This document shows, in pieces, positions 387 to 58,971 of a DNA stretch of 64,000 nt; position 1 is the first letter of the stretch, and each line of letters begins with the position of its first letter. The stretch is from a virus. The stretch covers positions 10,026 to 74,025 of the IMG/VR virus record IMGVR_UViG_3300030380_005342. One strand, written 5' to 3'. Position numbers and translations under genes: made by a program. The notes beneath the pieces were generated by a model. It ran no database searches, was not told where the DNA came from, and saw nothing but the letters and a program-made list of their open reading frames with translations.

Positions 387-1034
387 ATGCCTACTTTTCA
401 AAATGTGGTTGATCTTACAGCGAACGGTGAACGCTCCATCAAAATAATTTTAGCGAAAGGCTTTGATTTTTTTGAATTCAAAGATGAGCCTGAATATTCT
501 GTTTACACATCCTTTCCAAATAAAACCGCAAGATATCACTTTATCGAAATGATCACACAAGGTGGTCATGGTATCAATAGACCGATGACAAACGCAGAAA
601 TCAACAAAGTTCATCCTGACTTAACAAATGATGAAATAGAAAATCTTCGCTCCTTTTATGAAAGTAACAAAGAAAGAAGACCCTTCAAATTTAATCTTGA
701 GTCCACCAGACCACTAACAGATCAAAGTGTTTTGGACGAAGCAAATAATATCGAAAATGATTTTGTAAAGTATTTCAAAACAACTCGACCAATCATCGAG
801 CCAAGCGGCATTACTTTTGAAAACTCAATCAATTCAGGAACAGCGATAACCACTGATAATATTTTAAGTGGTATCCGTGGGTCAAATCAAACAGACGCAA
901 AATTTGTTGGCAACTTCGTGCCTCCGGTTGCAAACATCGGACAATATTGGTTGAACACTGGCTCGGGAAGATTGTTTGTTTATCTTTCTGACGGAAGCAC
1001 AAGCGGAGTGACATCCGCATGGGTGGAAATCTGA
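387..1034 (+). CDS. Hypothetical protein, probably virion-associated
   Basis: 215 aa ORF with AAGGAG RBS. C-terminal PP.ANIGQYWLNT.SGRLFVY...WVEI resembles a short motif common in phage fibre proteins. Confidence 0.6.
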   Translation: MPTFQNVVDLTANGERSIKIILAKGFDFFEFKDEPEYSVYTSFPNKTARYHFIEMITQGGHGINRPMTNAEINKVHPDLTNDEIENLRSFYESNKERRPFKFNLESTRPLTDQSVLDEANNIENDFVKYFKTTRPIIEPSGITFENSINSGTAITTDNILSGIRGSNQTDAKFVGNFVPPVANIGQYWLNTGSGRLFVYLSDGSTSGVTSAWVEI

Positions 1035-1318
1035 TGGCTTTATTTGCTGCTACGGTTGATACTAATGTAATCGGCAAGGAGGGCATTGGTAAAATATTTA
1101 CTGGTGAACTCTCAGTTTTGATTGAGGGCAAGCCAGCCTCAAGACTTAGTTCAATGGTTTCACCATATCCACCCGAAAAAGTTATTAGTGAAATAATCAC
1201 GGGATCACAATCAGTCTTAGTTGGAGGATTAAATATGACAAGAGGTACAGATATTAATAATTTACTCGATAAGGTGGATAACACCACATGTGCTACTTCG
1301 GTTGTGGTGGGACCATGA
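1034..1318 (+). CDS. PAAR-like spike tip protein (gp5.4-like), degenerate
   Basis: TGATG overlap start; about 94 aa with repeated TG..SVL(I/V).G motifs and KPASR; located between gp5 and gp25. Confidence 0.65.
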   Translation: MALFAATVDTNVIGKEGIGKIFTGELSVLIEGKPASRLSSMVSPYPPEKVISEIITGSQSVLVGGLNMTRGTDINNLLDKVDNTTCATSVVVGP

Positions 1319-2199
1319 GTGCTTTTCCAGAGGGTATCAATATTGCTCCACTCATCAATCAGGATTTTATAGATCTTTCAGGTTGTGATATTCCGGCACT
1401 TCCTATTTCAGACGAGGCTCTTGATATTATCAATAAAGCAATCTCTGGAGAACTTTTTATTAATCCAGTGCAAAATGCTTTAAATGCTGTTGGTGCTGAG
1501 GTTGGAAAAATCATCACAGAAGTTGATAATGCAGTTGGATCAGTTTTTATGACACTGGATGGAACTCAACTCGGAACTCCGATCCCCGGTGTGGATTTAT
1601 CTTTATTTGGTGGTGAGAATCCAACAGCAGCACAATTTATCACAAGTCTATCAGATCGTGTGACTAATACGGCAAACTTCATGCAAGAGCAGAGTGACAT
1701 TCTTAGTGGTGTTTCTTTAACAAAAGATGGGTTTGACCAAAACGGTGGTGTCTCTGATATGCCCGGCATCTCTGCCATCCAATCTTTGGCTGCTGGTTTC
1801 AATAATACTGTAAATTCATTGTCAAACACTGATGAATTGCTTGACAATTATAGTCAATTTTTTGGTAGTGTCTTGGGTCCGGGTACAGATCTTACAAATG
1901 GTATCAACGCTGCACTTGAGGGTGATTTTAGAACCGCACTTAATCTTCTACCCAGAGACTCTAATGGAAATATTAATTTTCTAAACGCCTCGACCCAAAA
2001 TTTGCAAGATCTGGTTGATGCATATGATAATGTCATGGTGGCAAAAACCGCAGTGGAAGAACTGATCAATAATGAAAGAGCATTGGTATTGGCTGCGACA
2101 GAATATCTTGTCAAAGCAACTTTTGGGTTTTCAATTTTAGCGATGCTTGCCGATCCTTGTTTTGGAAAAATAGTCGCTGACAAGGTGTTCAATATCTGA
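1315..2199 (+). CDS. Hypothetical acidic, helical protein in baseplate cluster
   Basis: ATGA overlap with upstream stop gives start MSAFPEG; long ORF in operon; no recognised motif. Confidence 0.6.
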   Translation: MSAFPEGINIAPLINQDFIDLSGCDIPALPISDEALDIINKAISGELFINPVQNALNAVGAEVGKIITEVDNAVGSVFMTLDGTQLGTPIPGVDLSLFGGENPTAAQFITSLSDRVTNTANFMQEQSDILSGVSLTKDGFDQNGGVSDMPGISAIQSLAAGFNNTVNSLSNTDELLDNYSQFFGSVLGPGTDLTNGINAALEGDFRTALNLLPRDSNGNINFLNASTQNLQDLVDAYDNVMVAKTAVEELINNERALVLAATEYLVKATFGFSILAMLADPCFGKIVADKVFNI

Positions 2200-2205
2200 T
2201 ACATA
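2198..2205 (+). promoter_or_regulatory. T4-type late promoter variant GATACATA (gp25)
   Basis: Matches TA(A/C)ATA core; 5 nt before gp25 ATG. Confidence 0.55.
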
Positions 2206-2210
2206 CAAAT

Positions 2211-2591: not shown

Positions 2592-4549
2592 TGCCAGCAA
2601 AAAACCTTAGCGTCAACTCAGTAGATTTTGATGTTGTCAGACAAAACATCAAAACATATCTTTCAAATTCAGATACGTTCACAGACTACGATTTTGAAGG
2701 ATCAGCGATGTCAACTCTGATTGACACTTTGGCATACATCACATATTATCAAGGCATCTACAATAACTTTGCAGCAAACGAAATGTTTCTTGACACTGCG
2801 AAAAAAAGAGCGTCCGTGGTTTCTCATGCAAAGGCACTTGGTTACACTCCTAGATCCTACTCAGCACCTACAGCGTCCGTAAATGTGATTCTTGGATCGA
2901 CTGCTGGTTACTCAAGCGTTCTTCCTGTTGGTAATATTTTTTCAACAACTGTAAATGGTAGAAATTACAATTTTGTAAACTTAGAAAGTGCAACTATTTC
3001 TCTCACTGCTGATAGTGGAGGAACCACACCTCACATTTCGAATCTCTCCGTCAAAGAGGGTGCTTTAAAAAGTAAAACTATTGTTGTGCCAAACAATGAA
3101 AATTATCAAAAAGTTGAGATTGATGATAAGTTTGTTGACACCACCACCATCAAAGTGACCGTTCAGGAGTCTGCAACAGATACAAGTGGTATCACAAATT
3201 CTTGGGTGAAGGGTAATGATGCTATCTCTCTGACTGCCGGGAGTCGAGCATATTTTGTCGAGGAGGACTACAACGGAAACTACTCTGTAAACTTTGGTGA
3301 CGGAGTTGTTGGTGTTACTCTTGCAGCAGGGAATGTTGTCACAGTTAGTTATCTTAGCACCAGCGGTCCTCTTGCAAATAACGTTGGCATTTTTGATTCT
3401 GATCTTGGAGTCAACTCTTTCAGATTTGCCAGCGGTAATACGGTGGATGTCGTAAGTCATGCATCAGGTGGTGCTTTACCACAAGGAATTGATAGCATTA
3501 GAAGATTAGCACCAAGGTCTTACTCCATGCAAAATAGGGCTGTGACAAGAGAAGATTTTAAAACTTTGATTGAGTCAAACTTTTCTGGGTTCTCTTCTGT
3601 TTTTGTCTACGGTGGTGAAGATGCCTCTCCCCCTCAGTATGGAAGTGTCATCATCTCTTTCAAGCCAGTGGCAAACACGATTACAACAACTGATTTCAAA
3701 AATAATGTTGTGTCATTCCTCAAAGATAGATGTCCTGTGACGATCAATCCAGTTGTGATTGATCCTGAAATTACATACGCTAGATTTAACACTCGCGTGG
3801 TTTACGATGTAAACAAAACTACACTTACCTCAAATTCTTTGTCTACTTTAGTGCGAAACACTTTATCTGTTTATGTTTTAGATAACACAGATGACTATGA
3901 TACTTTCCTTGCGTCATCTGCAATAGAAAAAGATTTATCAGATAACATTGAATCAATAATCTCAGTAAATACCAACATTGAAATGGAGCGAAGAATAACT
4001 CCTGTTTCTGATGTAGCACTAGACTACTCAATTGATTTTGCAAATCCAATCTTCCATCCCCATGATGGTCATGAAATTGTAGTTAGTAGTGAAGATTTTT
4101 TATATCTTGATGGAAGTGAATTCAAAACTGTTAGAATCAGAGATGATGGTTTTGGTAATATTAATCTTTTTGAAACTTCAGATTCATCTGATAATTTGGT
4201 AACTAATTTTGGAACAGTTGACTACTCAACTGGGGTAATTAGTCTTAACGTTGCACGACTCAACACAGTTGGTGCTTTAGGCACTATCAAAATTAGGGCT
4301 AAGTTTGGCGGAGATGTTTTGACCTCTGTTAGAGATAAAGTTATTGTTTATGATAATACGGATGCATTGGCAAACGCTGTTAGCGTTCAGACACTTTCAC
4401 AGGCTACATCTTACACACCAAGTCAAGTAAGTTCCTCATCGGGAACCAGCACAAGCACATCTTCAACGTCAACCTCATCAGCAAGCACATCATCATCCAC
4501 AACTTCTAGTGGTGGTGGCGGAGGCGGTGGCGGTTATGGAGGTTATTGA
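2591..4549 (+). CDS. gp6: Baseplate wedge subunit gp6
   Basis: FTDYDFEGS, NEMFLDTA..R.SVVSHAK.LGY.P, FGDGV.G, QNRAVT.EDF motifs; 652 aa. Confidence 0.95.
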   Translation: MPAKNLSVNSVDFDVVRQNIKTYLSNSDTFTDYDFEGSAMSTLIDTLAYITYYQGIYNNFAANEMFLDTAKKRASVVSHAKALGYTPRSYSAPTASVNVILGSTAGYSSVLPVGNIFSTTVNGRNYNFVNLESATISLTADSGGTTPHISNLSVKEGALKSKTIVVPNNENYQKVEIDDKFVDTTTIKVTVQESATDTSGITNSWVKGNDAISLTAGSRAYFVEEDYNGNYSVNFGDGVVGVTLAAGNVVTVSYLSTSGPLANNVGIFDSDLGVNSFRFASGNTVDVVSHASGGALPQGIDSIRRLAPRSYSMQNRAVTREDFKTLIESNFSGFSSVFVYGGEDASPPQYGSVIISFKPVANTITTTDFKNNVVSFLKDRCPVTINPVVIDPEITYARFNTRVVYDVNKTTLTSNSLSTLVRNTLSVYVLDNTDDYDTFLASSAIEKDLSDNIESIISVNTNIEMERRITPVSDVALDYSIDFANPIFHPHDGHEIVVSSEDFLYLDGSEFKTVRIRDDGFGNINLFETSDSSDNLVTNFGTVDYSTGVISLNVARLNTVGALGTIKIRAKFGGDVLTSVRDKVIVYDNTDALANAVSVQTLSQATSYTPSQVSSSSGTSTSTSSTSTSSASTSSSTTSSGGGGGGGGYGGY

Positions 4550-6993
4550 TGTCTAGTGGATTGAGTCTTGAAAATGCAGGCATTCTTTTAGGTCTTGTTC
4601 AACCACCACCACTACAAGGTGTGGTTGAGGGTGACGGCATCACTCTCTCAGTGGACGAGAGAGTTTCGGTGTTGATGAATGATGTGTTGCCAAGTTACAT
4701 TAGTGAAGAATATCCGCTTTTTATTGAATTTTTAAAGACTTATTTTGAATGGGCTGAGGAGTTTGGAAATCCAAGAGCCGAGGCTGTTCGGATGGCGACA
4801 TACATCGACATCGATCAAACTCTTTCAAACTTTCTAGACTTTTTCAAAAGCGAGTATCTTTACGGTTTCAATGAAGTAACATCTGGGATGTCCACTGAGA
4901 AGTTGGTGAAAATTGCAAAGGATTTGTATGGAAGAAAAGGTGACAGTGAGTCGATCAACTTTCTTTTCAAACTTGTCTTTGGTGTTGAGGCATCGGTATC
5001 GTATCCAAAAGATTTACTGTTAACACTCTCAGACTCCAATATTGATATTGAGAGAATACTGAAAACAACCAGAGTGAGTTTACCCGCAGACTTTGAAGGA
5101 GTTATTGGTGGTCGAGTAAGTCAAAAAATTACATCAAGATTTTCTGGAGAGATTTGCTCTGCCTTTATTGATGATTTTGATTTAAGTCAAAATAATGGTT
5201 TGAAAACTTGCACTATTAAACTTAAAGATATTAGCGGAACGTTCATTCCTAATAAAGAAATAGAATTCTCAAAAGGCTCCACCACATTTTATGAAACTTG
5301 TTTACCATTAATTTCATCTGTGGATGTTGGACTGTCTGGATCTGGACACGCGATCAATGATACCATCTCGATCACAGATTCATCAGGCAATTTAGTCGCA
5401 ACTACTTTTGTCTCCGCAGTCGGACGAAGCGGTGATATTGAAAGCGTTGCTCCGATTGACTCAAGATCTATTTTTCTGGAAAGAGAAACTTACACTGCGA
5501 CTATTAATACAAATGGCACTGGCTCCTCACTCGATGTGATTGGTAATAAAGCAGTCTCGCAAGATCGAAAGAAATTTTTAAGTGATAAGTCTTTGCTGTC
5601 TTCTGAGTCTAGACTGCCCGACAACAACAAATACCAAACCCACTCTTACATTGTTCGGGCAGAAAAACAGTTGTCTGACTATGCAGATATTCTTAGAAAA
5701 GTTTGTCACCCCGCTGGCACTAAATTTTTCTCAGAGCATCTTATCAAGAGAACCTTCAACGCAACAACCTTTGACTTTAGACCACCAGAAAGTGACGCTG
5801 ATTACGAAATTATTGAAACTCTTGAAGGCACAGGTAATTTTCAACGTGGTGACACCATCAACCTGTTGCTGGCAAATGGTAATGCGTCTGCCACAGCGGA
5901 GGTCGTTCGGTTTACGCCCAGTGGCATCTCTCTTCCAGATCCTTTCACTTTTGGCACAGTTTCTTTGCTTTTTTCGAGTGGTGTCAGTGCAGCAGCAACA
6001 AAGATTAAATCCACAAGAGGATTATTCAACATTAGTGCCACGGCTGGTGCAAAATATAGTTCAATCACAAATGATAATCTTGTAGTAAATGCAAAGATTG
6101 GTAACTACACTCCAGCCACATTTAACATGACCGCTGACTTTCGTGGTGAAACTTATGGTACAACCTTTGCGGACTACTATCCAACCGGATATAACGGACT
6201 TACACTTGCATCTCTTGGAACATTTTCATCAGGTTCCGCTGTAACCCATGATCCAAAAACTGCTGGCTTCACACCCGGAGCGATGGGTAGCATATCCGCT
6301 GGCACTTTGAACCCAGAGGCATATGGTTTCACCTTTGATGGTGTGACAGCAGGCACTACCCTTGTAGGTTACACGGTAGAAAACATTGACCAATTAGTAA
6401 TGATTGGTGGCACTGACTCTACCACGGCAGATCATTGGAATATTTACAGACATCCAAAAAATCTTGTTAACGGTATTACAAGTAGCATTCAAACGCTAAG
6501 AAGAATTAGATTCTTTACAGAAACAACGGTGGGTGTGAGCGGATCTCTTACCGCAGGATTCACAATTGGTAATACTGTCGTTCAACGCGACACAAACATG
6601 ACAACTGCAATCGGAACAATCGTTGGTTCAACAATCGCTCAACTTTCCACAATCTCTAGTTCTAATTTATCCAGCGTTGCGAGTATTGAATCATCTGCAA
6701 CTGGTGGATTTGGACTTGAACTTAGTTCACCATCAGTAAGTGTCTCTGCACAAGACACCAGTGGTGTCACGTTTAGTGAGACAATAGCAATTGACGTTAT
6801 CAGTGGCGAATTTACAAATGAATATAATCAAACTGGTGCAAAAATTAAAATGATTGCACTTGAAAGTGGGGCTGAGAGATTTATCGCGGGGACTGGCGGC
6901 ATTAACTTTATTAGTGATACATCGGTGACCACAGACATTGCTATGCAACACATAAATATTCAAGACTTCACAGATAACATGAGAACCAAATAA
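4549..6993 (+). CDS. gp7: Baseplate wedge initiator gp7-like
   Basis: LP.YI.EEYP.F.EFLK.YFEW, LY..KG..ESI.FLF, YQTHSYIVR, HPAG.KFF motifs; position between gp6 and gp8. Confidence 0.85.
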   Translation: MSSGLSLENAGILLGLVQPPPLQGVVEGDGITLSVDERVSVLMNDVLPSYISEEYPLFIEFLKTYFEWAEEFGNPRAEAVRMATYIDIDQTLSNFLDFFKSEYLYGFNEVTSGMSTEKLVKIAKDLYGRKGDSESINFLFKLVFGVEASVSYPKDLLLTLSDSNIDIERILKTTRVSLPADFEGVIGGRVSQKITSRFSGEICSAFIDDFDLSQNNGLKTCTIKLKDISGTFIPNKEIEFSKGSTTFYETCLPLISSVDVGLSGSGHAINDTISITDSSGNLVATTFVSAVGRSGDIESVAPIDSRSIFLERETYTATINTNGTGSSLDVIGNKAVSQDRKKFLSDKSLLSSESRLPDNNKYQTHSYIVRAEKQLSDYADILRKVCHPAGTKFFSEHLIKRTFNATTFDFRPPESDADYEIIETLEGTGNFQRGDTINLLLANGNASATAEVVRFTPSGISLPDPFTFGTVSLLFSSGVSAAATKIKSTRGLFNISATAGAKYSSITNDNLVVNAKIGNYTPATFNMTADFRGETYGTTFADYYPTGYNGLTLASLGTFSSGSAVTHDPKTAGFTPGAMGSISAGTLNPEAYGFTFDGVTAGTTLVGYTVENIDQLVMIGGTDSTTADHWNIYRHPKNLVNGITSSIQTLRRIRFFTETTVGVSGSLTAGFTIGNTVVQRDTNMTTAIGTIVGSTIAQLSTISSSNLSSVASIESSATGGFGLELSSPSVSVSAQDTSGVTFSETIAIDVISGEFTNEYNQTGAKIKMIALESGAERFIAGTGGINFISDTSVTTDIAMQHINIQDFTDNMRTK
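6951..6958 (+). promoter_or_regulatory. Late promoter CATAAATA (gp8)
   Basis: T4 TATAAATA-like, about 45 nt upstream of gp8. Confidence 0.5.
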
Positions 6994-14676: not shown

Positions 14677-14688
14677 CAGGAAACTTAA

Positions 14689-16644: not shown

Positions 16645-16646
16645 AT

Positions 16647-20379: not shown

Positions 20380-20383
<4 letters not shown>
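19532..20383 (+). CDS. gp15: Tail sheath stabilizer/completion protein gp15
   Basis: FYNE.IRR.VV.FG.LF.DI, VPI.Y..KEKF, LPRMGF, VPYNI.F.L, QI.EQILP.F.P. Confidence 0.95.
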
Positions 20384-40971: not shown

Positions 40972-40979
40972 CCTAAATA
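40972..40979 (+). promoter_or_regulatory. Late promoter CCTAAATA
   Basis: Intergenic, upstream of the AGGAG RBS of ORF 40998. Confidence 0.6.
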
Positions 40980-47544: not shown

Positions 47545-48398
47545 GTGACATTGGAATTATTGGAAATGGTTTTGTTGGTGGAGCAGTGGCATATGGTTTC
47601 CGTGATCAAAAACCTCTAGTCTACGATATTAATCCAGACGCATCCACTCACAGTTTTGATGATGTTGCAAACTGCAAGTACCTTTTCATCTGCTTGCCCA
47701 CACCGATGGTAAGTGAAACTGGAGGCGAGGCAAACACCAGCATCGTTGAGGAATGCTTGGAGAAACTATATCAAAACAGAGAGCAAGTAATCATGCTCAA
47801 GTCTACCGTTCCGGTTGGCACGACTAAACTGTTGTCTCAGAAGCATCGCCTAAGAAACTTGGTTCATTGTCCTGAGTTCTTGACCGCTGCAAACGCAAAG
47901 TATGACTTTGTAAATGCTGATAGGACTGTGATCGGATCTCCATATCTCAGAGATGGTATTGAAGAAAAATATTCCGAAATGGCAAAGGAACTATTCTTAA
48001 AAGTTTTTCCCGACATCCCCGTTTACACCATGTCATCATGTGAGTCAGAGATGGTAAAGTATACGGCTAACTGTTTCCTTGCAACCAAGGTTGGTTTCTT
48101 CAATATGATTTTTATGCTTGGCGAAAAGATGGGCTTGGACTACAATCGTGTCCTTGAAGGAGTCTTGGCTGATCCTAGAATTGGCAGATCACACACGGCA
48201 GTACCCGGTCCCGATGGAGACTATGGATTCGGTGGCACATGTTTTCCCAAAGATGTAAATGCGATGATTACAACTTTGCAAAATAATCACATCTCGTCTT
48301 ACATTTTAGAGTCTGTTTGGAGAGACAATATGAAATACAGAAAAAACTGGGACTGGGCAAATAACACATCAGCAGTGAGAGCAAATGAAACTCGGTGA
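47541..48398 (+). CDS. UDP-glucose/GDP-mannose dehydrogenase family protein (short form)
   Basis: GNGFVG Rossmann, CLPTP, KSTVPVGTT, PEFL, E.VKY..N.FLA.K, catalytic GFGG.CFPKD. Confidence 0.88.
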   Translation: MSDIGIIGNGFVGGAVAYGFRDQKPLVYDINPDASTHSFDDVANCKYLFICLPTPMVSETGGEANTSIVEECLEKLYQNREQVIMLKSTVPVGTTKLLSQKHRLRNLVHCPEFLTAANAKYDFVNADRTVIGSPYLRDGIEEKYSEMAKELFLKVFPDIPVYTMSSCESEMVKYTANCFLATKVGFFNMIFMLGEKMGLDYNRVLEGVLADPRIGRSHTAVPGPDGDYGFGGTCFPKDVNAMITTLQNNHISSYILESVWRDNMKYRKNWDWANNTSAVRANETR

Positions 48399-49240: not shown

Positions 49241-50146
49241 ATGAAATACCTAGTGACTGGCGGGGCTGGATTTATTGGATCTAATATTGTTTCTACTTTG
49301 CTTGAGGGTGGACATCAGGTCATAGTGATTGATAACGAATCATCTGATGCACATCACACCTTTTACTGGCAAGACCTAGCAGAAAATCATAAGTTAGATA
49401 TTTGTGATTACGAAAAGATTCTACCTCTTTTTGATGGTGTAGATACAGTGTTTCATTGTGCAGCGGAGGCAAGGATTCAACCTGCCATAATTAACCCACT
49501 ACTCGCAGTCAAAACAAATTCGTATGGCACATGCTCAGTGTTACAAGCAGCCAGAGAAATGGGCGTTCGTAGAGTTGTTTACTCATCAACCTCTTCGGCT
49601 TATGGTTTAGAAAACGTTCCACCAAATGTTGAAACCCAACGAGAGGACTGCCTAAATCCATACTCGGTATCAAAAGTTTCTGGCGAAAAACTTTGCAAAA
49701 TGTATTACGATTTGTTTGGTTTAGAAACCATCGTGTTTAGATACTTCAATGTTTATGGTGAGCGTCAGCCTCTCAAGGGTCAGTATGCTCCTGTCGTTGG
49801 ATTATTTTTAGAGCAGTGGAAGAAAGGCGAACCCCTTACCATTGTCCCTGACGGAGAACAACGAAGAGACTACACTCATGTTTCAGATGTCGTGTTTGCA
49901 AACATACTTGCATCAACGGTTCGTAAAAATGCTTGTGGTGAAGTTTACAATGTGGGAACCGGAACAAATTTTTCTGTAAATGAACTTGCAAAAATGATTT
50001 CTGATAATACAATCATGATTGAACCACGACTAGGAGAGGCAAGAGTGACTTTGGCAAACAATAATAAGTTGCGTAGAGTGATGCGATGGGAGCCAACAGT
50101 CAAACTCGAAGAGTGGGTAAAAAATGAAAAGGAGAGAATCAAATGA
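49241..50146 (+). CDS. NAD-dependent nucleotide-sugar epimerase/dehydratase
   Basis: TGGAGFIGS, YSS.SS.YG, YSVSK (YxxxK), RYFNVYG, DG.Q.RD..HV.DV..AN. Confidence 0.92.
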   Translation: MKYLVTGGAGFIGSNIVSTLLEGGHQVIVIDNESSDAHHTFYWQDLAENHKLDICDYEKILPLFDGVDTVFHCAAEARIQPAIINPLLAVKTNSYGTCSVLQAAREMGVRRVVYSSTSSAYGLENVPPNVETQREDCLNPYSVSKVSGEKLCKMYYDLFGLETIVFRYFNVYGERQPLKGQYAPVVGLFLEQWKKGEPLTIVPDGEQRRDYTHVSDVVFANILASTVRKNACGEVYNVGTGTNFSVNELAKMISDNTIMIEPRLGEARVTLANNNKLRRVMRWEPTVKLEEWVKNEKERIK

Positions 50147-50838
50147 TCGGTGGCGAAAACGTTGATGAAACAAGAGTGAATCTACTAGAAACCAGAACTC
50201 GATGGATAAACGTATCAAAAGATACTGAAAAGGCATCACAAATGGTTGAACTCCTTGGTGATAAAAATTTTACAAACCATGAGAGATTTAATGCACTAAC
50301 AGAAGATGCAGAGTTTGGGTGGACAAAGGAAAAAAGCCCAGAGTGGTTTGTGACTCACATGTGTGGACTTTCACATCGTAAACTTTTGATGGAAACCATT
50401 ATCAAGGATGACAAACCCGTTCTTATTTTAGAGGATGATGTTGAGATTGAACATCCAACATGGATGGATGAAATCCCAGTTCCCCGAGATGCAGACGCAG
50501 TATATCTTGGCACTTCTCACAGCGACATGAGATACAGGGCAGAGGATCACGGCAATGGTTGGAATAAAATTACGGGAGTGTTTGGAACACACGCCATCTT
50601 ACACTTGAATAAAAAGTATGCCTCAGAGATGTGTATCATGATTGAAAGATGCGTTAAAAATAATCATCCATTTGATGTTTCATTGGCAAAGGATCTACAA
50701 GGGAGATTTAATGTATACGCACCATACTCTCCATTCTTTTATCAAGCAGACTCAAAAAATACCACAAATAAGTATGAGGCTATTACAAGACCGCCACTTA
50801 CTCAACAAAAAAAGTTTACGCTTGGAACATTTAAATAA
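50143..50838 (+). CDS. Glycosyltransferase, GT25-like
   Basis: WIN, ERF.A, C.LSH, LILEDD, YLG, THA...D motifs. Confidence 0.75.
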   Translation: MIGGENVDETRVNLLETRTRWINVSKDTEKASQMVELLGDKNFTNHERFNALTEDAEFGWTKEKSPEWFVTHMCGLSHRKLLMETIIKDDKPVLILEDDVEIEHPTWMDEIPVPRDADAVYLGTSHSDMRYRAEDHGNGWNKITGVFGTHAILHLNKKYASEMCIMIERCVKNNHPFDVSLAKDLQGRFNVYAPYSPFFYQADSKNTTNKYEAITRPPLTQQKKFTLGTFK

Positions 50839-50840
50839 TC

Positions 50841-51602
50841 ATGCCAGTATCTTTTAATAATCCAACTTGGAGACTTGGCAACCAAATGTTCCAGTATGCT
50901 GCGACACTTGGTGTTGTTGAAAAAATCAATACACATGGTAATTTTGCGATTGATAACACATATCTCTCCGAGTGTTTTGAACTAGGCTCCTTGAAAAATG
51001 CGAGAGTGTTTGCAAACAATCTTTATCAAGAACCTCGTTTTGATTTCTGTGATGATATTTTTAGAATTGATCCCAACTTACATACAGATCTACAAGGTTA
51101 CTTTCAGACTGAAAAATACTTTGACCACTGTAGCGGAAGAGTAAAGGCTGATTTTACTTTTAAAGAAAATATTAGACATAAAGTTTCTGAGGATTTACCA
51201 GTCGGTGTTCTTTGTTCTCTCCATGTGAGAAGGACAGACTATCTACAACTCGCACATGTCCACACAAATTTGCAAGTGGATTGGTATGAGAAAGCCTTCG
51301 AAAATCAAAAGGAATACTTTGGTGATGAACTTATCCCCGTGATATTTTCTGATGACATTGAGTGGTGTAAAGAAAATTTATCACATCTTTCTGACGATAC
51401 TTTCTTTTCAAATGGTGACACATACTATGATCTTTGCATGATGTCTTTTTGCAACGCTCACATAATTGCAAATAGTAGTTTTAGTTGGTGGGGTGCTTAC
51501 CTTGGTGGGGGCAGAACAGTTGCACCAAAAGAATGGTTTGGAGAAAGTAATCCTCACGGGGATTGGAAAGATATTTACTGCGATGGATGGGTGATCATTT
51601 GA
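50841..51602 (+). CDS. GT11 alpha-1,2-fucosyl/colitosyl-transferase
   Basis: RLGNQMFQYA, GYFQ.EKYF, HVRR.DY, FSDD..WC, IIANSSFSWWGAYL, AP..WF. Confidence 0.92.
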   Translation: MPVSFNNPTWRLGNQMFQYAATLGVVEKINTHGNFAIDNTYLSECFELGSLKNARVFANNLYQEPRFDFCDDIFRIDPNLHTDLQGYFQTEKYFDHCSGRVKADFTFKENIRHKVSEDLPVGVLCSLHVRRTDYLQLAHVHTNLQVDWYEKAFENQKEYFGDELIPVIFSDDIEWCKENLSHLSDDTFFSNGDTYYDLCMMSFCNAHIIANSSFSWWGAYLGGGRTVAPKEWFGESNPHGDWKDIYCDGWVII

Positions 51603-52417
51603 AAATCGTACAAGCATTTGGATCACCATTTACTCACGATAAAAGTTCGTGCATGGGAAGTGTTCCTACTAATCACATTTGGCACTACGGAGCATGCGAG
51701 GACTCAGACATCGAAGTTTACTTGGATTATGATGTAGTGGGAGGATTTAAATCTCCATGTGAAAATAAGTTTCTTTGGCTGAGTGAATCTAAATCTATTG
51801 TTCCTCATCAATATGCTTTTGTAAGAATGTGGTATGAAAAGTTTTGCGACTGTTATAAAGCAATATTTACGGCAGATCGAGAGTTAGTTAATCTTCATGA
51901 TAAGTTTATAGAAGCACCCGGAGGATCAAACTATACATGGGTGACTCCAGATAAACGGGGTGTTCATAAAAAGTCCAAACTTGTTTCTATGATTAGTTCT
52001 GGAAAAGTTATGTGTGAAGATCATATTAATCGAAATGCAATCGCAGACAAAATGATTGAGCAAGGTGTTGACATGTTTGGCAGACTATACACACCTGTTG
52101 AAACCAAAGATATGGCACTAAATGATTATATGTTTTCTGTGACCATAGAAAATGTAATCTTATCAAATTATCAAACAGAAAAAGTCATCGATTGTTTCGC
52201 AACGGGAACTGTTCCAATTTACTTGGGGAATCCATCCATCGGTGAAACCTTTAATCCAGATGGAATTATTTTTTACGATGACAACTTTGATCTAAATATG
52301 TTGTCGGAAGATTTGTATCAAAAAATGCTTCCGGCTGTGAAAGAAAATTATGAGATATTCTGTAACATGAAAATCTCTGATGATGTGATTTTTGACAAGA
52401 TCACAAAACTACTCTAA
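51599..52417 (+). CDS. GT10-like (alpha-1,3/4-fucosyltransferase-type) glycosyltransferase
   Basis: K.K.VS.I.S, Y.FS..IEN....NY.TEK..DCF..GTVPIY.G; probable TTG start overlapping upstream stop (track ATG at 51563). Confidence 0.78.
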   Translation: MKIVQAFGSPFTHDKSSCMGSVPTNHIWHYGACEDSDIEVYLDYDVVGGFKSPCENKFLWLSESKSIVPHQYAFVRMWYEKFCDCYKAIFTADRELVNLHDKFIEAPGGSNYTWVTPDKRGVHKKSKLVSMISSGKVMCEDHINRNAIADKMIEQGVDMFGRLYTPVETKDMALNDYMFSVTIENVILSNYQTEKVIDCFATGTVPIYLGNPSIGETFNPDGIIFYDDNFDLNMLSEDLYQKMLPAVKENYEIFCNMKISDDVIFDKITKLL

Positions 52418-52437: not shown

Positions 52438-54541
<2,104 letters not shown>

Positions 54542-54542
<1 letters not shown>

Positions 54543-55705
54543 TGGCACTCACTAATGTTTTCTATTCACCATCGGGAGCAGGTTCACAAGACGGATCATC
54601 TGCTGCGAACGCAAAGGCAGCACTCACGGGAACTTCGTGGACAACTGACATCGAAGGGGAAGCACGACAAAACACTCGCTGGATTTTTCTTGCTGGAACT
54701 TATACTTGTACTGAAGAGTTAATCCCAACATCTACCAACCCGGACGCAGACAATCCACACTTTTGGGTGGGTGCAGATGCAGACGGTAATCTTCTTGATC
54801 CAAAGTGGTCTGATGATTCACAGGCACACCTAGACACCACTGACTATCCAAAGATTATCCGAACAAACAATGGTGGACTTTATCAAAGTGCAGGAACATC
54901 CACAATTTATAGATGTTTGCATTTTGAAAACACAAGTTCCAGTTTCAATCAGGGTGGTGTCCTCAACTCCACCTTTGGTGAATCAATTCGACAACTATAT
55001 GTTGGTGTTTTTATGCGTGCGCCTGAAAATTCACTTGCGAGCAATAACAACTCAAGGGTTCACAACAACTTTGGTGCAAAAAGTATTATGTGTGAGTTTG
55101 TTCATCTCGGCACAAGATTAGATTGTATTGTTCAAAATGGTGGCACTAACCAAGGCTCTTTGTATAACTGTCGAATATATGGTGCAAGCACGGGTGGAAG
55201 AGGAAACGGAAACGGTGTCAAATGCGATACGAACACACCACAGATTATCAATTGTGTGATTGACAATGTTAAAGGTGACGGAATCTCTGACCAAGGAACA
55301 TCAGAAAACAAAAATGGAAACTTTACTAACAATACGATAACACGATGCGGGGCGAATGGTATTGACTCCGCTGGTGCTGCACAAACTCAAGGTGGTGTTC
55401 AAATTGAAAATAATATTATTTTTGATGTTGGTGGACACGCAGTGGTCGCAAATGCAAATGATGACGATAGACTTCTTGGCTCACAGATTGCGATTGGCGA
55501 TGCAACGTCTGGGAACTTTAGTAATCTTGATGAATATGAAAATCTTTTTACAGTCACCGCAGTGGCAACGACAGATTTTGTAGATTATGCAAACCAAGAC
55601 TATCGGATTCGCAGAGACTCTGCACTTTACAAGAAGACCGAAGCAGGTAACTTGAATCTTGGTGCAATTCAAAACGAAGATTTTGAGTTTGTTTCAGTTT
55701 CCTAA
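54542..55705 (+). CDS. Right-handed parallel beta-helix (pectin-lyase-like) protein
   Basis: YSP.GAG..DGSS.ANA start; NC.I, NNTI..CG.NGI, ENNII repeats; C-terminal FVD..N.DYR....S...NLGA.Q. Confidence 0.72.
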
Positions 55706-55708
55706 ATA
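55701..55708 (+). promoter_or_regulatory. Late promoter CCTAAATA
   Basis: Overlaps upstream stop; followed by AGGAG RBS. Confidence 0.6.
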
Positions 55709-55723
55709 GGATAGGAGAATAAC

Positions 55724-56188
55724 ATGGCTGCTGAATACGACATTACACACGATAAAGGTACAACCTTCAAACTTTTTGCTTTGTATAAAGATTCTGCCGG
55801 AAGTGTCATTGACTTGGCTAATTTTACTGCAAGAATGCAAGTAAGAAAAAGTCCAGATGACTCAGATGTTTTACTCTTTATGACAGGAACGACCATGAGC
55901 GGCACTGCGGGTATTGTTCATAGTGGTAGTGTTACTGGTGGCGGCTCTACAGGGGAGTTTACCGTTGGTGCTTCAACAGCACAGACAGGTACGGGCGATA
56001 TCAGATTGAACGCTGGAAGCACTGGGTTTACTGGTGAAACTGGAGGAGTGTATTTAGAATTTGATGCAGTCACATCGGCAAACTTACCCACGGGCAGACA
56101 CTTCTATGATCTTGAGTTGATCGAAGGCACGGAAGTAACGAGATTGGTTCAAGGTAGATTTAAGACTAACGAAGAAATCACAAGATGA
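55724..56188 (+). CDS. Small virion structural protein (BppU-N-like beta-sandwich)
   Basis: YDI...G.TF......D..G..IDL..FTARMQVR, YDLEL.....V.RL..G.F.....ITR pattern of phage fibre adaptors. Confidence 0.65.
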   Translation: MAAEYDITHDKGTTFKLFALYKDSAGSVIDLANFTARMQVRKSPDDSDVLLFMTGTTMSGTAGIVHSGSVTGGGSTGEFTVGASTAQTGTGDIRLNAGSTGFTGETGGVYLEFDAVTSANLPTGRHFYDLELIEGTEVTRLVQGRFKTNEEITR

Positions 56189-56409: not shown

Positions 56410-56424
56410 GGATATTTTTTTATT

Positions 56425-56889
56425 ATGATTATGAAAAATGATGTGACAAAAGTTCTTGGCTTCTACGCCTTACATCCACAGGCAAAACTTCCAATGAAAC
56501 AAACACAGGGTGCAGCATGTTTTGATATACATGCATGTTGTGATGACTTGATCACTCTCAACCCCGGTGAAAGAGCATTGATTCCAACAGGTTTGATTTT
56601 TGATATTCCCGAAGACCATTCGGTAAGGATTCACACACGATCTTCGTGGGCGGCTATCAAAGGCATTGGTCTGTCCGTATCACAGGGGATTATTGATTCC
56701 GATTATGTTGAAGAGGTCTTTGTGCCAATGGTAAACAATACGGACAAACTGTTTCACATTCGCAGCGGTGAACGCATTGCACAGATTGAACTTGTGAAAA
56801 CTATTCCAACAATCAACACATGGGTTGATGATCGTCCCACGAAGCGTGGCAATCGTGACGGTGGATTCGGGAGTACGGATGATGATTGA
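56425..56889 (+). CDS. dut: Trimeric dUTPase
   Basis: AACFD, IPTGL, RSS, GIIDSDY, GERIAQ, R.GGFGST. Confidence 0.93.
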   Translation: MIMKNDVTKVLGFYALHPQAKLPMKQTQGAACFDIHACCDDLITLNPGERALIPTGLIFDIPEDHSVRIHTRSSWAAIKGIGLSVSQGIIDSDYVEEVFVPMVNNTDKLFHIRSGERIAQIELVKTIPTINTWVDDRPTKRGNRDGGFGSTDDD

Positions 56890-57796
56890 TTACGACAAGG
56901 TTTTTATCACCGGAGGAAACGGTCTTGTCGGATCTTGCGTTACTGGAAAGCATCGTCCTTCTTCAAAGGAAGTGAATCTTCTTAATTATGAGGAAACACT
57001 CTCTTACATGCAAGAGAACAAAATTGAATATGTTGTTCACTGTGCTGCTCGCGTTGGCGGTGTAAAAGAAAACATGGAAAAGTTAGGTGAGTTCTTTTAC
57101 GAGAACATGCTGATGACCTTGAATATCATTGAGGCATCACGGGTGTGTGGTGTGAAGAAAATGGTTTGTCTACAATCAACCTGTATCTTCCCAGACAATG
57201 CTACTTACCCACTGACAACCGATCAAATTTACAAAGGTGAGCCACACCCATCAAACTATGGATACGGTTATGCCAAGCGAATGACTGAGATCAATGCGAG
57301 AGCATACCGTGATCAGTACGGCATGAATATTGTGAATGTAATCCCATGCAATGTTTACGGGATCGGGGACAACTTTAATCTTGAGAGTTCGCATGTGATT
57401 CCCGGCTTGATCCACAAGTGTCATTTGGCAAAACAGAATAACACTAAATTTGATGTTTGGGGTGATGGTCTTGCACAACGAGAGTTTTTGTATAATAAAG
57501 ACTTGGGTAAGATTATTGACTGGATGCTTTTAGAATATGACAGTCCTGAATCTCTGATTGTCTCACCAGATATGGAACACGCAATAGTAGAAGCAGTCGT
57601 ATTAATTACGAAAGCATTTGACTTTTCCGGCTCCGTCAATTATGATTCATCGAAACCAAAAGGTCAGCACAGAAAACCGTCAGATAACTCTAAGTTCAAA
57701 GAACTTCGCCCCGACTTTGAGTTTACATCATTAAATACTGGTATCAACGAAACAGTCGATTGGTTCACGAAAAACTATGGAGATGTTAGAAAATGA
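56882..57796 (+). CDS. GDP-L-fucose synthase (Fcl)/GDP-colitose synthase (ColC)-like epimerase-reductase
   Basis: TGG.GLVG, H.AA.VGG, STCI.P, P.P.N.GY.YAKR, P.N.YG..DNF.L..SHVIP.LI.K, WG.G...REFL. Confidence 0.9.
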   Translation: MIDYDKVFITGGNGLVGSCVTGKHRPSSKEVNLLNYEETLSYMQENKIEYVVHCAARVGGVKENMEKLGEFFYENMLMTLNIIEASRVCGVKKMVCLQSTCIFPDNATYPLTTDQIYKGEPHPSNYGYGYAKRMTEINARAYRDQYGMNIVNVIPCNVYGIGDNFNLESSHVIPGLIHKCHLAKQNNTKFDVWGDGLAQREFLYNKDLGKIIDWMLLEYDSPESLIVSPDMEHAIVEAVVLITKAFDFSGSVNYDSSKPKGQHRKPSDNSKFKELRPDFEFTSLNTGINETVDWFTKNYGDVRK

Positions 57797-58971
57797 AGTC
57801 TTGGAAACTAATGAACAATGCCATTACACCAAAACAAAAACTGCGAATGTCAAAGTTTTTACTGACATCAGATCGTTTGTCTCAGGGAAAAGAAGTTAAA
57901 AAGTTTGAAGAGCAGTGGAGTGAGTGGCAGGGCTGTAAGTATTCCGTATTTTGTAATTCTGGTTCGTCCGCGAACTTTCTGATCGTGCAGGCGATGAAAG
58001 AATTGCATAGTAATACAAATCATCTTTGGATTGCACCTGCGACAACTTGGGCAACCACGGTATCTCCCATCATGATGGCAGGACAGGAACTTCAATTATG
58101 TGATGTGACTATTCCCAATATGAATTTGTGTCTGGATACTCTTAAAGAAATTTTGCATCAACATAAGAAATCATTTGGGGCTAGACCAAAGTATCTTTTC
58201 CTTGCTCATCTCCTTGGCTTCAACTCTATGAGTGACGAACTTCTTAACATCTGTGAGGAGAATGATATCACACTTCTAGAAGATTGTTGTGAGTCTCATG
58301 GTGCAACTTTTAAATCTGAAAAGATTGGTAACTTTGGTAAGGCTTCATCTTTTTCTTTCTACTACGGACATCACATGACCACGATTGAAGGTGGTATGGT
58401 ATGCACAGACGATGATGAGGTGTACGAAAAACTCCTTTTAATCCGTTCACACGGGTTACTCAGAGAATTGCCAAAATATATGCAAAAGAAATACAGGGAT
58501 CGAAAGGTTGACGAAAACTTTACCTTTGTGGTTCCGGGGTACAACGTGAGATCAACAGATTTAAATGCTGTGCTTGGTCAAATGCAACTTAAAGATTTAG
58601 ATAATCACAACAATATCCGTAGAAATAACTTTGATGTGTTTGCGAGTGGTCTGAATAGAGATAAGTTTCACACAGACTTCAAACTTGAAGGCAACAGTAG
58701 TTTCTGTTTTCCTGTTATCACAAAGTCAACCCGAGAAGATACACTCGCACTAAGAAAGTATCTTGAGTCGCAAGGAGTCGAGACACGACCGATCATCGCA
58801 GGTAATCTTTATGAGCATCCGTTCATGGATCGTGTCAACCAATATCGACATGACAAAAATGCAAAGGTGGTTCATCAAAATGGATTCTATGTCGGAAATA
58901 ATCACGCAGTAAATGTGGGTGATGTGACTTGGTTGGTTGAAAGACTAAACGCATGGGAACGAGGTGAATAG
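57793..58971 (+). CDS. PLP-dependent DegT/DnrJ family enzyme, ColD-like GDP-4-keto-6-deoxymannose 3-dehydratase
   Basis: NSGSSAN, TW.TT..P, LED.CESHGA, SFSFYYGHHMTTIEGG (His at the usual Schiff-base Lys position), RSHG..R, F.F..PGYNVR, ETRPI.AGN. Confidence 0.82.
   Translation: MKSWKLMNNAITPKQKLRMSKFLLTSDRLSQGKEVKKFEEQWSEWQGCKYSVFCNSGSSANFLIVQAMKELHSNTNHLWIAPATTWATTVSPIMMAGQELQLCDVTIPNMNLCLDTLKEILHQHKKSFGARPKYLFLAHLLGFNSMSDELLNICEENDITLLEDCCESHGATFKSEKIGNFGKASSFSFYYGHHMTTIEGGMVCTDDDEVYEKLLLIRSHGLLRELPKYMQKKYRDRKVDENFTFVVPGYNVRSTDLNAVLGQMQLKDLDNHNNIRRNNFDVFASGLNRDKFHTDFKLEGNSSFCFPVITKSTREDTLALRKYLESQGVETRPIIAGNLYEHPFMDRVNQYRHDKNAKVVHQNGFYVGNNHAVNVGDVTWLVERLNAWERGE

Follow-up and report, generated by a model that had tools for sequence, protein, structure and literature searches.

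A candidate SgtA-type glycosyltransferase, its Gly-x-Thr collagen and a probable sugar coat on the virion of an uncultured marine T4-like phage

Introduction

In C. difficile, the gene for SgtA, an enzyme consisting of a GT-A domain and four TPR repeats, is located immediately 5' of bclA3 (PMC7157674). SgtA acts in the cytoplasm on linear peptides; its substrate is the exosporium protein BclA3, and in vitro it adds beta-O-GlcNAc to Thr residues of GPT collagen peptides and of some non-collagen peptides (PMC7157674). GmaR of Listeria monocytogenes, likewise comprising GT2 and TPR parts, is also cytoplasmic and transfers GlcNAc to flagellin (PMC9638930), modifying Ser/Thr residues in the exposed part of a folded structural protein of an extracellular filament. 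In pelagimyophages and large cyanomyoviruses, clusters of glycan genes have been read as modifying host LPS or DNA (PMC7029224; PMC12801897).

The DNA analysed here is a stretch of 64,000 nucleotides (the window; all features given with coordinates lie on its plus strand) from IMG/VR record IMGVR_UViG_3300030380_005342, an uncultured marine T4-like phage. An initial annotation had proposed that the tripeptide Gly-x-Thr (G-x-T), dense in exterior virion proteins, is the acceptor sequon of a phage glycosyltransferase. Mycobacteriophage-encoded glycosyltransferases reportedly put O-linked glycans on the phages' own capsid and tail proteins. These siphoviruses differ from the window in their actinobacterial hosts, other enzyme families and absence of a collagen partner, and we know of no dispersed sequon-like word described for them. 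In the literature on T4-like phages, nothing comparable has been reported.

Results

The enzyme at the centre of the locus (GT2-TPR, 52438..53709) is a putative protein glycosyltransferase of 423 aa, with Pfam Glycos_transf_2 and TPR matches and a basic C-terminal tail that appears to set it apart from SgtA. The profile of its family matches the entire GT domain of GmaR (E 2.8e-23), the best match of solved structure, and also SunS (1.9e-12) and, at profile positions 202-310, TPR repeats. The motifs DADD, DTGSTD and HEY are invariant across 19 homologues. Together these features support its assignment to protein O-glycosyltransferases of the GmaR/SgtA type, with intact catalytic motifs. GT2-TPR groups with protein and peptide glycosyltransferases (GmaR and SunS, and SgtA by architecture) and not with the lipid-linked polysaccharide enzymes. 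The linker, anti-repressor domains and flagellin substrate of GmaR have no counterpart in the phage enzyme, which is paired with a collagen instead.

This partner is a collagen-like fibre protein of 277 aa (53709..54542; Pfam Collagen, NCBIfam Scl/Lcl collagen adhesins), comprising about 40 triplets, almost all of them G-x-T with A, T, P or N as x, and ending in a domain of roughly 120 aa. Its G-x-T number 41, where 14.7 are expected (z 8.8); the initial annotation had described a collagen of 40 such triplets. A TAATG stop/start overlap joins the two genes and supports their translational coupling. Judged by published architecture, the arrangement resembles SgtA-BclA3: a GT-A domain followed by TPRs, encoded immediately 5' of a G-x-T collagen-like gene. 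It differs in its carrier, a T4-like phage, in a fibre without membrane anchor, where Ala, Thr or Asn mostly stands in place of Pro at the middle of the triplet, in the additional GT10, GT11, GT25-like and sugar-nucleotide genes, and in the over-representation of the acceptor word on non-collagen virion proteins as well.

Both phages and bacteria carry conserved copies of the pair. A G-x-T collagen accompanies GT2-TPR in 11 of 13 close relatives and in 8 of 22 distant full-length viral homologues, versus none of 44 matches to the N-domain only, and the jumbo phage Tunturi_5 carries both genes. In bacteria (Clostridia, Paenibacillus, Streptomyces and others), a G-x-T collagen was found at most 3 kb from a GT2-TPR homologue in 24 of 80 loci, versus 0 of 80 gp18 loci. 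G-x-T collagens also occur without GT2-TPR, for example in phage ACG-2014f.

Two further genes follow. The first (54542..55705) encodes a 387-aa protein without an assigned family, having zero matches in Pfam, NCBIfam and PHROG; it is conserved 3' of the collagen gene in close relatives, with copies 77-83% identical at the same position in L082, L083, L084, L092 and L339, and is not enriched in the motif (1 G-x-T against 3.7 expected). The second, ORF 55724 (55724..56188), encodes a predicted Ig-like beta-sandwich protein of 154 aa, accompanying GT2-TPR in 13 of 13 close relatives. Its alignment shows conserved G-x-T-G loops (GVTGGGxTGEF and GxTGxTGG), and the best PDB matches of its AF2 model (pLDDT 81.5) are tail-tip chains of about 140 aa from T5/DT57C, with TM about 0.5. 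The heptamer CTAAATA is present 17 nt 5' of the GT2-TPR start and 15 nt 5' of ORF 55724.

Upstream, genes for GT25-like, GT11 and GT10 proteins occupy 50143..52417, the cassette following regA in all close relatives. GT11 (Pfam, 85 bits) and GT10 (37 bits) are fucosyltransferase families. The initial count of four glycosyltransferases accompanied by sugar-nucleotide enzymes thus stands for GT11, GT10 and GT2-TPR, while GT25 was rejected as a firm assignment (Pfam 21 bits, under the cut-off of 24). The sugar-nucleotide enzymes were recovered: UDP-glucose 4-epimerase GalE (44107..45090; TIGR01179, 268 bits, cut-off 262); a short NDP-sugar dehydrogenase of 285 aa (47541..48398; Pfam, NCBIfam), covering positions 67-298 of a 413-position model, with copies of similar length in relatives; an NDP-sugar epimerase/dehydratase (49241..50146; Pfam Epimerase, GDP_Man_Dehyd), for which no NCBIfam model scored above its cut-off; and a GDP-L-fucose-synthase-like reductase with a DegT/RfbH-type PLP enzyme (56825..58971; Pfam Epimerase, DegT_DnrJ_EryC1), whose NCBIfam matches GDPFucSynFcl (217 bits) and RfbH (180 bits) are both under equivalog cut-offs.

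Across 13 proteins of the window that belong to tail, baseplate, neck, sheath and capsid, G-x-T was observed 128 times, where 73 are expected (z 7.4), and pooled across the window structural proteins 139 times against 78 (z 7.5), ranking first of about 290 gapped residue pairs, with z 3.7 for the runner-up. The non-structural window proteins contain 37 against 44 expected. The extended form G-x-T-[G/A] is a sharper signal, with 37 against 13 expected (2.9x) in structural proteins; in non-structural ones it is absent, although 6 are expected. The excess is specific to Thr, G-x-S being flat in structural proteins, and to spacing, with none for G-T, G-xx-T or T-x-G. It persists in whole-protein shuffles (z 3.3-4.6 for gp18, ORF 16647, ORF 14689 and the gp7-like protein) and in local shuffles of blocks of 10-60 residues (z 2.9-3.9). 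Correction for Gly and Thr composition therefore leaves an excess, in the exterior and structural set and not in the non-structural one. The word GGNNNNAC occurs 139 times in frame, versus out-of-frame counts of 4 and 12, and G-x-T sites show ordinary codon usage, indicating that the signal is at the protein level. BLAST found no domain shared among the enriched proteins, and the dispersed motif, (S/T)-G-x-T-(G/A), looks like a single collagen triplet together with the Gly that follows it.

Outer tail, neck and baseplate proteins contain the word about two to three times as often as expected. The density attributed to exterior proteins is thus borne out for the pool and not for each member: a 1911-aa VrlC-like baseplate protein (19 against 16.4 expected) and gp6 (7 against 5.1) are not enriched, and the tail tube is flat. 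The motif is indeed scarce in gp43, portal, gp21 and gp46, as first annotated, but this matches their low Gly/Thr content and is no depletion. Small excesses also occur in interior or non-virion proteins, namely scaffold gp22 (in relatives) and UvsW.

The tail sheath protein gp18 (22503..24935, 810 aa) has 21 G-x-T where 8.9 are expected (z 4.6), and 11 of these have the extended form G-x-T-[G/A]; the total and that of ORF 16647 below reproduce exactly those made by hand. Residues 5-95 and 490-810 align with T4 gp18 residues 4-95 and 342-656, so that residues 96-489, where 17 of the 21 sites are located, replace T4 residues 96-341, which we take to be the surface domains I and II of T4 gp18. 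The sites thus lie mostly in a part differing from T4, as had been proposed. In the AF2 model, 17 of 21 motif Thr are in coil and about 10 lie in loops modelled at a pLDDT below 50; several sites are predicted at turn-to-strand transitions, in a region modelled weakly (pLDDT 37-65).

In the gp7-like baseplate wedge protein (4546..6993; 17 against 7.8 expected), 15 of 17 sites fall within residues 435-740, beyond the conserved N-terminal wedge domain. Its orthologues in the enzyme-bearing relatives G001, G003 and G005 have 15-17 sites (z 2.3-3.3), with just 3 of the 17 window positions in common, and the 32% identical orthologue of G014, a phage without the enzyme, has 3 against 3.7 expected. 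Two fibre/baseplate-region proteins (14689..17699) for which Pfam and PHROG searches matched no family, ORF 14689 (651 aa) and ORF 16647 (350 aa), contain 20 against 9.5 and 14 against 6.7, and their orthologues are enriched in G001, G002, G003 and G005 (z 2.3-4.5). The excess is mild in neck protein gp14 (6 against 2.7) and sheath terminator gp15 (4 against 3.0), encoded at 18642..20383, and greater in G001, G002 and G005 (gp14, z 2.8-3.4; gp15, z 3.2-5.1). Major capsid protein gp23 (31244..32686) has 8 against 3.5 (z 2.6), five of them in residues 131-176, a stretch aligning poorly with the matching part of T4 gp23; among the relatives, only G003 shares this excess.

The G-x-T excess is present in each of the five related T4-like phages that carry the enzyme, namely the window and four sequenced relatives; in the latter (G001, G002, G003, G005) the word again ranks first of about 290 pairs (1.5-2.0x, z 4.4-6.2). 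No excess was found in five enzyme-free T4-like phages (T4 0.99, Melnitz 0.90, S-RIM12 1.05, G014 0.89, ACG-2014f 1.05): searches found no GT2-TPR in the first four, and none of the cyanophage records, including ACG-2014f, matched it. In Gly/Thr-rich ORFs, G-x-T-[G/A] reaches 2.2-3.5x in G000, G001 and G003 versus 0.5-0.9x in five comparison T4-like genomes. At 26-50% identity the sites change position and yet remain as dense, the gp7-like protein sharing 3 of 17 sites and gp18 9 of 21. Motif depletion in non-structural proteins is seen in this genome only, and not in G001 or G003.

The expected co-occurrence of motif enrichment and GT2-TPR therefore holds among T4-like phages (five of five with, none of five without) and fails in two independent jumbo phages that carry a distant GT2-TPR beside G-x-T collagens (Tunturi_5 1.00, G019 1.09), which confines the enzyme-motif link to one clade. 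No clade member without the enzyme was found; since every visible close relative has the glycosyltransferase cassette, the co-occurrence amounts to one phylogenetic contrast.

Discussion

With moderate confidence at best, we regard the window as encoding a phage copy of a bacterial SgtA-BclA3 type system, including a decorated tail, neck and baseplate. A soluble GT-A (GT2) and TPR enzyme would be made together with the collagen-like fibre, the small Ig-like protein and the 387-aa partner, and would put the first sugar on the Thr of the motif; the analogy to SgtA and GmaR suggests a HexNAc from a UDP-sugar. That the collagen fibre is its glycosylated substrate is quite likely. At least six unrelated virion proteins would have come under selection for the word (S/T)-G-x-T-(G/A), in loops of outward-facing parts that are specific to the lineage: sheath, gp7-like wedge, the two fibre-region proteins, gp14 and gp15, with gp23 in some members. 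More tentatively, GT2-TPR would use these dispersed sites as acceptors too. As an SgtA-type enzyme adjoins its own G-x-T collagen and outer proteins carry the motif in excess, the particle is probably sugar-coated. For the sequon proposed initially, enzyme type, collagen pairing and the Thr-specific excess in the enzyme-bearing clade speak in favour, and the two jumbo phages against.

The jumbo phages fit better with a rather unlikely alternative, in which GT2-TPR modifies just the adjacent collagen, perhaps with the Ig-like protein, and the dispersed excess is a building habit of the clade, for example a favoured turn-to-strand motif in loop- and beta-rich insertions, inherited and kept for folding. 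The gene pair extends far beyond the clade to which the entire signal maps, only some proteins are enriched, and several gp18 sites, just ahead of or at the start of predicted strands, would also fit a purely structural habit. Such a habit would, however, have produced as top word the exact collagen triplet, equally Thr-specific and equally followed by Gly, in at least six proteins lacking a detectable common domain, and kept its density through the turnover of positions; in Gly/Thr-rich fibre proteins of the five other T4-like phages, G-x-T-[G/A] is at 0.5-0.9x.

It is very unlikely that the glycosyltransferase and sugar-nucleotide genes alter host lipopolysaccharide or surface glycans instead (superinfection exclusion, grazer evasion), leaving the virion untouched, although similar GT10, GT11, GT25 and epimerase clusters have been interpreted so (PMC7029224; PMC12801897). 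Pelagimyophages and large cyanomyoviruses are, like the window, marine and T4-like, with GT10, GT11, GT25, GT2 and NDP-sugar epimerase genes; a GT11 homologue occurs in 103 phage records, mostly of cyanophages, and the cluster of the window lies among replication genes, outside the structural operon. The cultured examples nevertheless lack GT2-TPR, and ACG-2014f, the only such phage tested, has the cluster without the motif excess. Host-surface modification would leave that excess unexplained, and accords poorly with an enzyme of the protein-glycosylating type whose gene overlaps a collagen gene, in a window containing no flippase, polymerase, ligase or initiating phosphoglycosyl transferase. 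Least probable is a selected surface word read otherwise (docking of the collagen fibre or Ig-like protein, another Thr modification, evasion of a virion-recognising host defence): selection on the word itself is supported, but GT2-TPR is the sole candidate reader conserved with it, and no enzyme family other than the one encoded here is known to act on G-x-T.

Under the SgtA-type reading, and judging by gene adjacency, the products of the GT25-like, GT11 and GT10 genes nearby probably lengthen the glycan from phage-made nucleotide sugars, e.g., galactose, 6-deoxyhexose or fucose-type, amino and carbamoylated ones. For the last of these, a NodU-like carbamoyltransferase (37593..39266; Pfam Carbam_trans_N/C; NCBIfam NodU, E 5e-49, under cut-off) is a possible sugar O-carbamoylase.

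Affiliation of the Phage and Gene Organization

The window spans 64 kb of a 74-kb viral contig, and all its genes lie on the + strand. Annotation by PHROG, Pfam and NCBIfam searches yielded a T4-type map comprising gp25, gp6, gp7, gp8, gp13–gp23, uvsW, gp46/47, gp45/44/62, regA and gp43. The synteny of this core, as seen in the PHROG and Pfam annotation, assigns the phage to the T4-like myophages (Kyanoviridae-like marine group). No close cultured relative was found, the sheath protein gp18 being just 46% identical to that of Methylophilales phage Melnitz and about 40% identical to those of cyanophages.

The baseplate genes gp25 (2211), gp6 (2591), gp7-like wedge protein (4546) and gp8 (7003) are followed by a gene for a VrlC-like DUF4815 protein of 1911 aa (8941) and by ORF 14689 and ORF 16647, encoding fibre/baseplate-region proteins of 651 and 350 aa without an assigned family; for the latter no usable match was found in the ESM Atlas. 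Then come gp13, gp14, gp15, gp16, gp17, sheath gp18 (22503), tube gp19, portal gp20, protease gp21, scaffold and capsid gp23 (31244). The following genes encode, in order, UvsW, a gp55-like protein, gp47, a NodU-like carbamoyltransferase, gp46 and GalE, and then gp45, gp44, a short NDP-sugar dehydrogenase, gp62 and RegA. A glycosyltransferase cassette located downstream of regA comprises an epimerase, a weakly matching GT25-like protein, GT11, GT10, a predicted glycosyltransferase with a TPR domain (GT2-TPR, 52438–53709) and a collagen (53709–54542). Two family-less proteins, dUTPase, a GDP-fucose-synthase-like enzyme, a DegT-type enzyme and gp43 are encoded after the collagen gene.

Over-representation of the G-x-T Motif in Structural Proteins

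The initial annotation described the Gly-any-Thr motif (G-x-T) as dense in the exterior virion proteins and proposed a comparison with composition-shuffled controls. Its hand counts were exact on recount, and the observation proved to be strong. In whole-protein shuffles, the excess was seen in gp18 (21 sites against 8.9 expected, z 4.6), ORF 14689 (20 against 9.5, z 3.9), the gp7-like protein (17 against 7.7, z 3.7) and ORF 16647 (14 against 6.7, z 3.3). Local shuffles in blocks of 10–60 residues, which keep the local composition, left it nearly unchanged (z 2.9–3.9). In a spacing scan G-x-T alone stood out, and not G-T, G-xx-T or, in general, T-x-G. In the pooled structural proteins G-x-T occurs 139 times against 78 expected (z 7.5) and ranks first among 290 gapped pairs, the runner-up having a z of 3.7; the pooled non-structural proteins of the window contain 37 against 44 expected. 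As the signal persisted in both kinds of shuffle, in the spacing scan and when all pairs were ranked, a composition artefact is ruled out.

The excess is specific for Thr, since G-x-S is not enriched. The longer forms G-x-T-[G/A] (37 against 13 expected in structural proteins, z 6.5; 0 against 6 in non-structural ones) and [S/T]-G-x-T (30 against 14 in structural proteins) are also in excess, so that the word resembles one collagen triplet plus its neighbours. The apparent avoidance of G-x-T-[G/A] in non-virion proteins (0–2 against 6–7) was seen in the genome of the window phage and not in two of its relatives (G001 and G003), and is therefore unused as evidence. The VrlC-like protein, gp6 and the tube protein are not enriched, and small G-x-T excesses occur in UvsW and, in relatives, in scaffold gp22.

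Several other origins of the word were considered. GGNNNNAC occurs 139 times in frame against 4 and 12 times out of frame, and this frame specificity, together with the ordinary codon usage at the sites, rules out a DNA-level motif. Short tandem collagen fragments are unsupported: the sites are clustered, yet no excess of 3-residue spacing is seen. All-against-all BLASTP (E 0.01) found no inserted domain shared among the enriched proteins. As to a generic property of sheath and fibre proteins, 76 gp18 homologues had a mean z of 0.86 with the window gp18 as the maximum, and the T4-like phages T4, Melnitz, S-RIM12, ACG-2014f and G014 are flat, so this origin was rejected for the strong signal.

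Some other features of word usage were noted. An ORF upstream of the window on the same contig (G000:C1:6189-7991, 601 aa) contains 11 G-x-T against 4.7 expected (z 3.5). The most over-represented adjacent pair in the structural proteins of the window is S-G (110 against 73, z 5.0). [S/T]-G-S is over-represented 2.3x in the relative G003 and just 1.4x in the window.

Location of the Sites

Residues 5–95 and 490–810 of gp18 align to residues 4–95 and 342–656 of T4 gp18. Since these flanks align, residues 96–489 replace T4 residues 96–341, the protruding domains I and II of the T4 sheath protein. This replaced region harbours 17 of the 21 G-x-T sites. The structural setting of the sites was judged from the secondary structure and pLDDT of an AF2 model of moderate quality (pLDDT 66), in which 17 of the 21 motif Thr are in coil and about ten in loops with pLDDT below 50, while several sites directly precede strands. 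In the gp7-like protein, 15 of the 17 sites are C-terminal to the conserved wedge domain, and in gp23 five of eight fall within residues 131–176, a stretch poorly aligned with T4 gp23.

GT2-TPR and the Adjacent Collagen

The best solved relative of GT2-TPR (423 aa) is the glycosyltransferase domain of Listeria GmaR (E 1e-12 with the single sequence), and the family profile aligns over this whole domain with E 2.8e-23; next are the peptide glycosyltransferases SunS and ThuS. The Pfam Glycos_transf_2 match and the GmaR profile alignment indicate a GT-A fold with the DxD metal/nucleotide-sugar motif, and DADD, DTGSTD and HEY are invariant across 19 homologues. A TPR domain is located C-terminal to the catalytic domain; single-sequence Pfam TPR matches are weak, and by the family profile positions 202–310 match consensus TPR proteins with E down to 7e-20.

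GmaR adds GlcNAc to flagellin (PMC9638930). Clostridioides difficile SgtA consists of a GT-A domain and four TPRs, is encoded immediately upstream of bclA3, transfers beta-O-GlcNAc in vitro onto the Thr residues of GPT collagen peptides, and acts on some non-collagen Ser/Thr peptides too (PMC7157674). The architecture of GT2-TPR agrees with the published description of SgtA. The gene arrangement agrees as well, GT2-TPR being adjacent to the gene of a G-x-T collagen, the kind of protein substrate used by SgtA; its stop codon overlaps the collagen start (TAATG). The collagen matches Pfam Collagen and NCBIfam Scl/Lcl models and consists of about 40 uninterrupted triplets, almost all of them G-x-T (41 G-x-T in the protein), thus carrying the BclA-type Thr at the third position, and of a non-collagen C-terminal domain of about 120 aa. 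A full-length GT2-TPR homologue (24% identity, residues 6–358) and a G-x-T collagen (63/64) are also found together at a Paeniclostridium hominis locus. In architecture and gene arrangement, GT2-TPR and its collagen represent the SgtA–BclA3 kind in a phage.

The pairing recurs among homologues. In close relatives, a G-x-T-rich collagen is found beside the enzyme in 11 of 13 loci. Eight of 22 distant full-length viral homologues (23–34% identity) are near very large G-x-T collagens, the largest of 2814 aa with 387 G-x-T, against none of the 44 viral loci matching the N-domain only. The cultured jumbo phage Tunturi_5 encodes its homologue at a distance of 3.7 kb from the gene of a 1469-aa "tail fiber protein", which contains G-x-T collagen tracts. 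A G-x-T-rich collagen ORF is present within 3 kb at 24 of 80 bacterial homologue loci (Streptomyces, Clostridia, Paenibacillus, Chloroflexia and others) and at 0 of 80 background gp18 loci.

All 13 loci of close relatives also carry a homologue of ORF 55724 (154 aa). The model of this protein is an Ig-like sandwich (pLDDT 81.5) with conserved G-x-T-G loops, closest to chains of about 140 aa from the T5/DT57C tail tip (TM about 0.5). As a lead only, it could serve as an anchor or as another substrate.

Relatives have collagen-like genes that are additional or considerably larger. At L085–L091, collagens of 470–907 aa are located after the ORF 55724 homologue in the order GT2-TPR, Ig-like, collagen, unlike the window order, and G001 contains an extra 1030-aa collagen-like gene upstream of the baseplate genes (G001:C1:20466-23555, L229/L230). 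The cultured cyanophage ACG-2014f encodes a 929-aa collagen-like protein with 72 G-x-T (W05 13861-16647) and no GT2-TPR, so Thr-rich phage collagens exist without this enzyme.

Full-length GT2-TPR homologues were also identified in IMG/VR GVMAG giant-virus bins (L098, L099, L101 and L102; 29–32% identity), with no collagen gene within 10 kb of the homologue. The Bacillus cereus group, home of the glycosylated collagen BclA, contains full-length homologues with 32–34% identity (L257–L259 and L272, from B. tropicus, B. fungorum, B. gaemokensis and Bacillus sp. 491mf), and a collagen ORF is found within 10 kb in one of the four. The C terminus of GT2-TPR (53620–53709; also in L083–L093) is a strongly basic Lys/Arg tail whose character, but not sequence, is kept across the clade and which is absent from distant homologues. 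This tail might bind DNA, membrane or prohead.

Co-occurrence of the Motif and the Enzyme

The structural modules of four relatives with the enzyme on the same contigs (25–50% identity in the enriched proteins) were compared. G-x-T ranks first of about 290 pairs in each (G001 1.50x, G002 1.99x, G003 1.53x, G005 1.52x; z 4.4–6.2). Enriched are the gp7-like protein, the orthologues of ORF 14689 and ORF 16647, gp14 and gp15, and variably gp18 and gp23. Only 3 of 17 window sites in the gp7-like protein and 9 of 21 in gp18 are common to any orthologue. What is conserved is therefore the density rather than the position, an argument for selection acting on the word as such. Phages lacking the enzyme have no excess (T4 0.99, Melnitz 0.90, S-RIM12 1.05), even in the Gly/Thr-richer fibre proteins.

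Whole-genome scans of ORFs with at least 4 expected sites gave ratios of 1.81 for the genome of the window phage, 1.47 for G001 and 1.61 for G003, all with the enzyme. Among those without it, the ratio was 0.89 in G014 (96% complete; its gp7-like orthologue, 32% identical, has 3 sites against 3.7 expected), 0.89 in Melnitz and 1.05 in ACG-2014f, which has a GT11/epimerase cluster and the G-x-T collagen. In Gly/Thr-rich ORFs, G-x-T-[G/A] is over-represented 2.2–3.5x with the enzyme against 0.5–0.9x in the comparison genomes.

Among T4-like phages, the trait and the enzyme both map to one clade. All close relatives extending far enough past regA carry the glycosyltransferase cassette, while more distant T4-likes run from regA to gp43 without it. 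Intermediate relatives (L080, L026, L079 and L075) have the excess, and their contigs end short of the position of the enzyme. No clade member lacking GT2-TPR was found, contigs either carrying the cassette or ending too soon. The co-occurrence looked for by the initial annotation is accordingly a contrast between this clade and five T4-likes without the enzyme, and it does not extend to the jumbo phages Tunturi_5 (1.00) and G019 (1.09), in which distant GT2-TPR homologues are located beside G-x-T collagens and no dispersed excess is seen.

Possible Role in Virion Glycosylation

The initial annotation interpreted the word as the acceptor of a phage O-glycosylation system, and this interpretation finds partial support, to a different degree for its different parts. 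Glycosylation of the collagen by GT2-TPR is likely. The use of the dispersed G-x-T words as acceptor sites is plausible, though short of probable, and relies on a single clade-level association. In the full scheme, the lineage would have written the collagen-type word (S/T)-G-x-T-(G/A) into exposed loops of many unrelated tail, neck, baseplate and sometimes capsid proteins, and a single SgtA-like cytoplasmic enzyme would prime a fucose-type glycan coat over the whole particle; we propose this more tentatively still.

The main alternative is that glycosylation is confined to the collagen, the dispersed word reflecting a structural habit peculiar to the clade. The pairs of enzyme and G-x-T collagen in Tunturi_5 and G019, which come without a dispersed excess, speak for it. 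In its favour the dispersed-acceptor reading has the coincidence that an enzyme family known to use the Thr of G-x-T as acceptor occurs together with the top over-represented short word on the outer proteins of the clade, which makes for a concrete and directly testable site prediction. Alternatively, GT10, GT11 and GT25 may modify host LPS or DNA, as the glycan islands of pelagimyophages and large cyanomyoviruses are read in the literature (PMC7029224; PMC12801897). This function fits poorly with an enzyme of the GmaR/SunS group that has SgtA architecture and whose gene overlaps that of a collagen; nor does it account for the motif excess.

No virion glycosylation or sequon-like word was described for T4-like phages in the literature searched. 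To our knowledge, phage virion glycosylation is experimentally documented for mycobacteriophages only, and the work on these is the known precedent; phage-encoded glycosyltransferases reportedly go together there with glycans on capsid and tail proteins, and glycosyltransferase genes are present in the uncultured window phage as well. Bacterial cytoplasmic O-glycosylation is, as far as we know, generally thought to proceed without a simple sequon. If dispersed G-x-T words do serve as acceptors, they would constitute a sequon system, encoded in the genome, by which a virion is O-glycosylated in the cytoplasm, and the present view of marine myophage glycan islands as auxiliary genes acting on the host surface would have to be revised. 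This could affect how virions adsorb, how readily they stick to marine gels, how well they withstand proteases and grazing, and how host defences recognize them, and a short portable tag with one enzyme would become available for protein glycosylation in the bacterial cytoplasm. If they do not, the motif nevertheless remains a surface feature that is selected and specific to the clade, and it calls for explanation.

Other Genomic Features

The sequence CTAAATA is present in eight copies on the + strand of the window, roughly the chance number. Copies at 40973, 48759, 52414 and 55702 are located 15–32 nt 5' of the starts of ORF 40998, regA, GT2-TPR and ORF 55724. Because four of the eight fall in the rare intergenic gaps before these starts, the element is considered promoter-like, and the label "late promoter" was not adopted.

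The NDP-sugar dehydrogenase encoded between gp44 and gp62 (47541–48398; 285 aa, GTG start) is missing the first ~65 and the last ~115 positions of the family model and has a similar length in relatives, perhaps as a truncated remnant or as a split enzyme. The ORF between the portal and protease genes (27754–29268) encodes 504 aa in the window, as compared with 101–171 aa for its homologues in G001, G002 and G005, suggesting that a probable prohead core protein has undergone a large expansion specific to this lineage.
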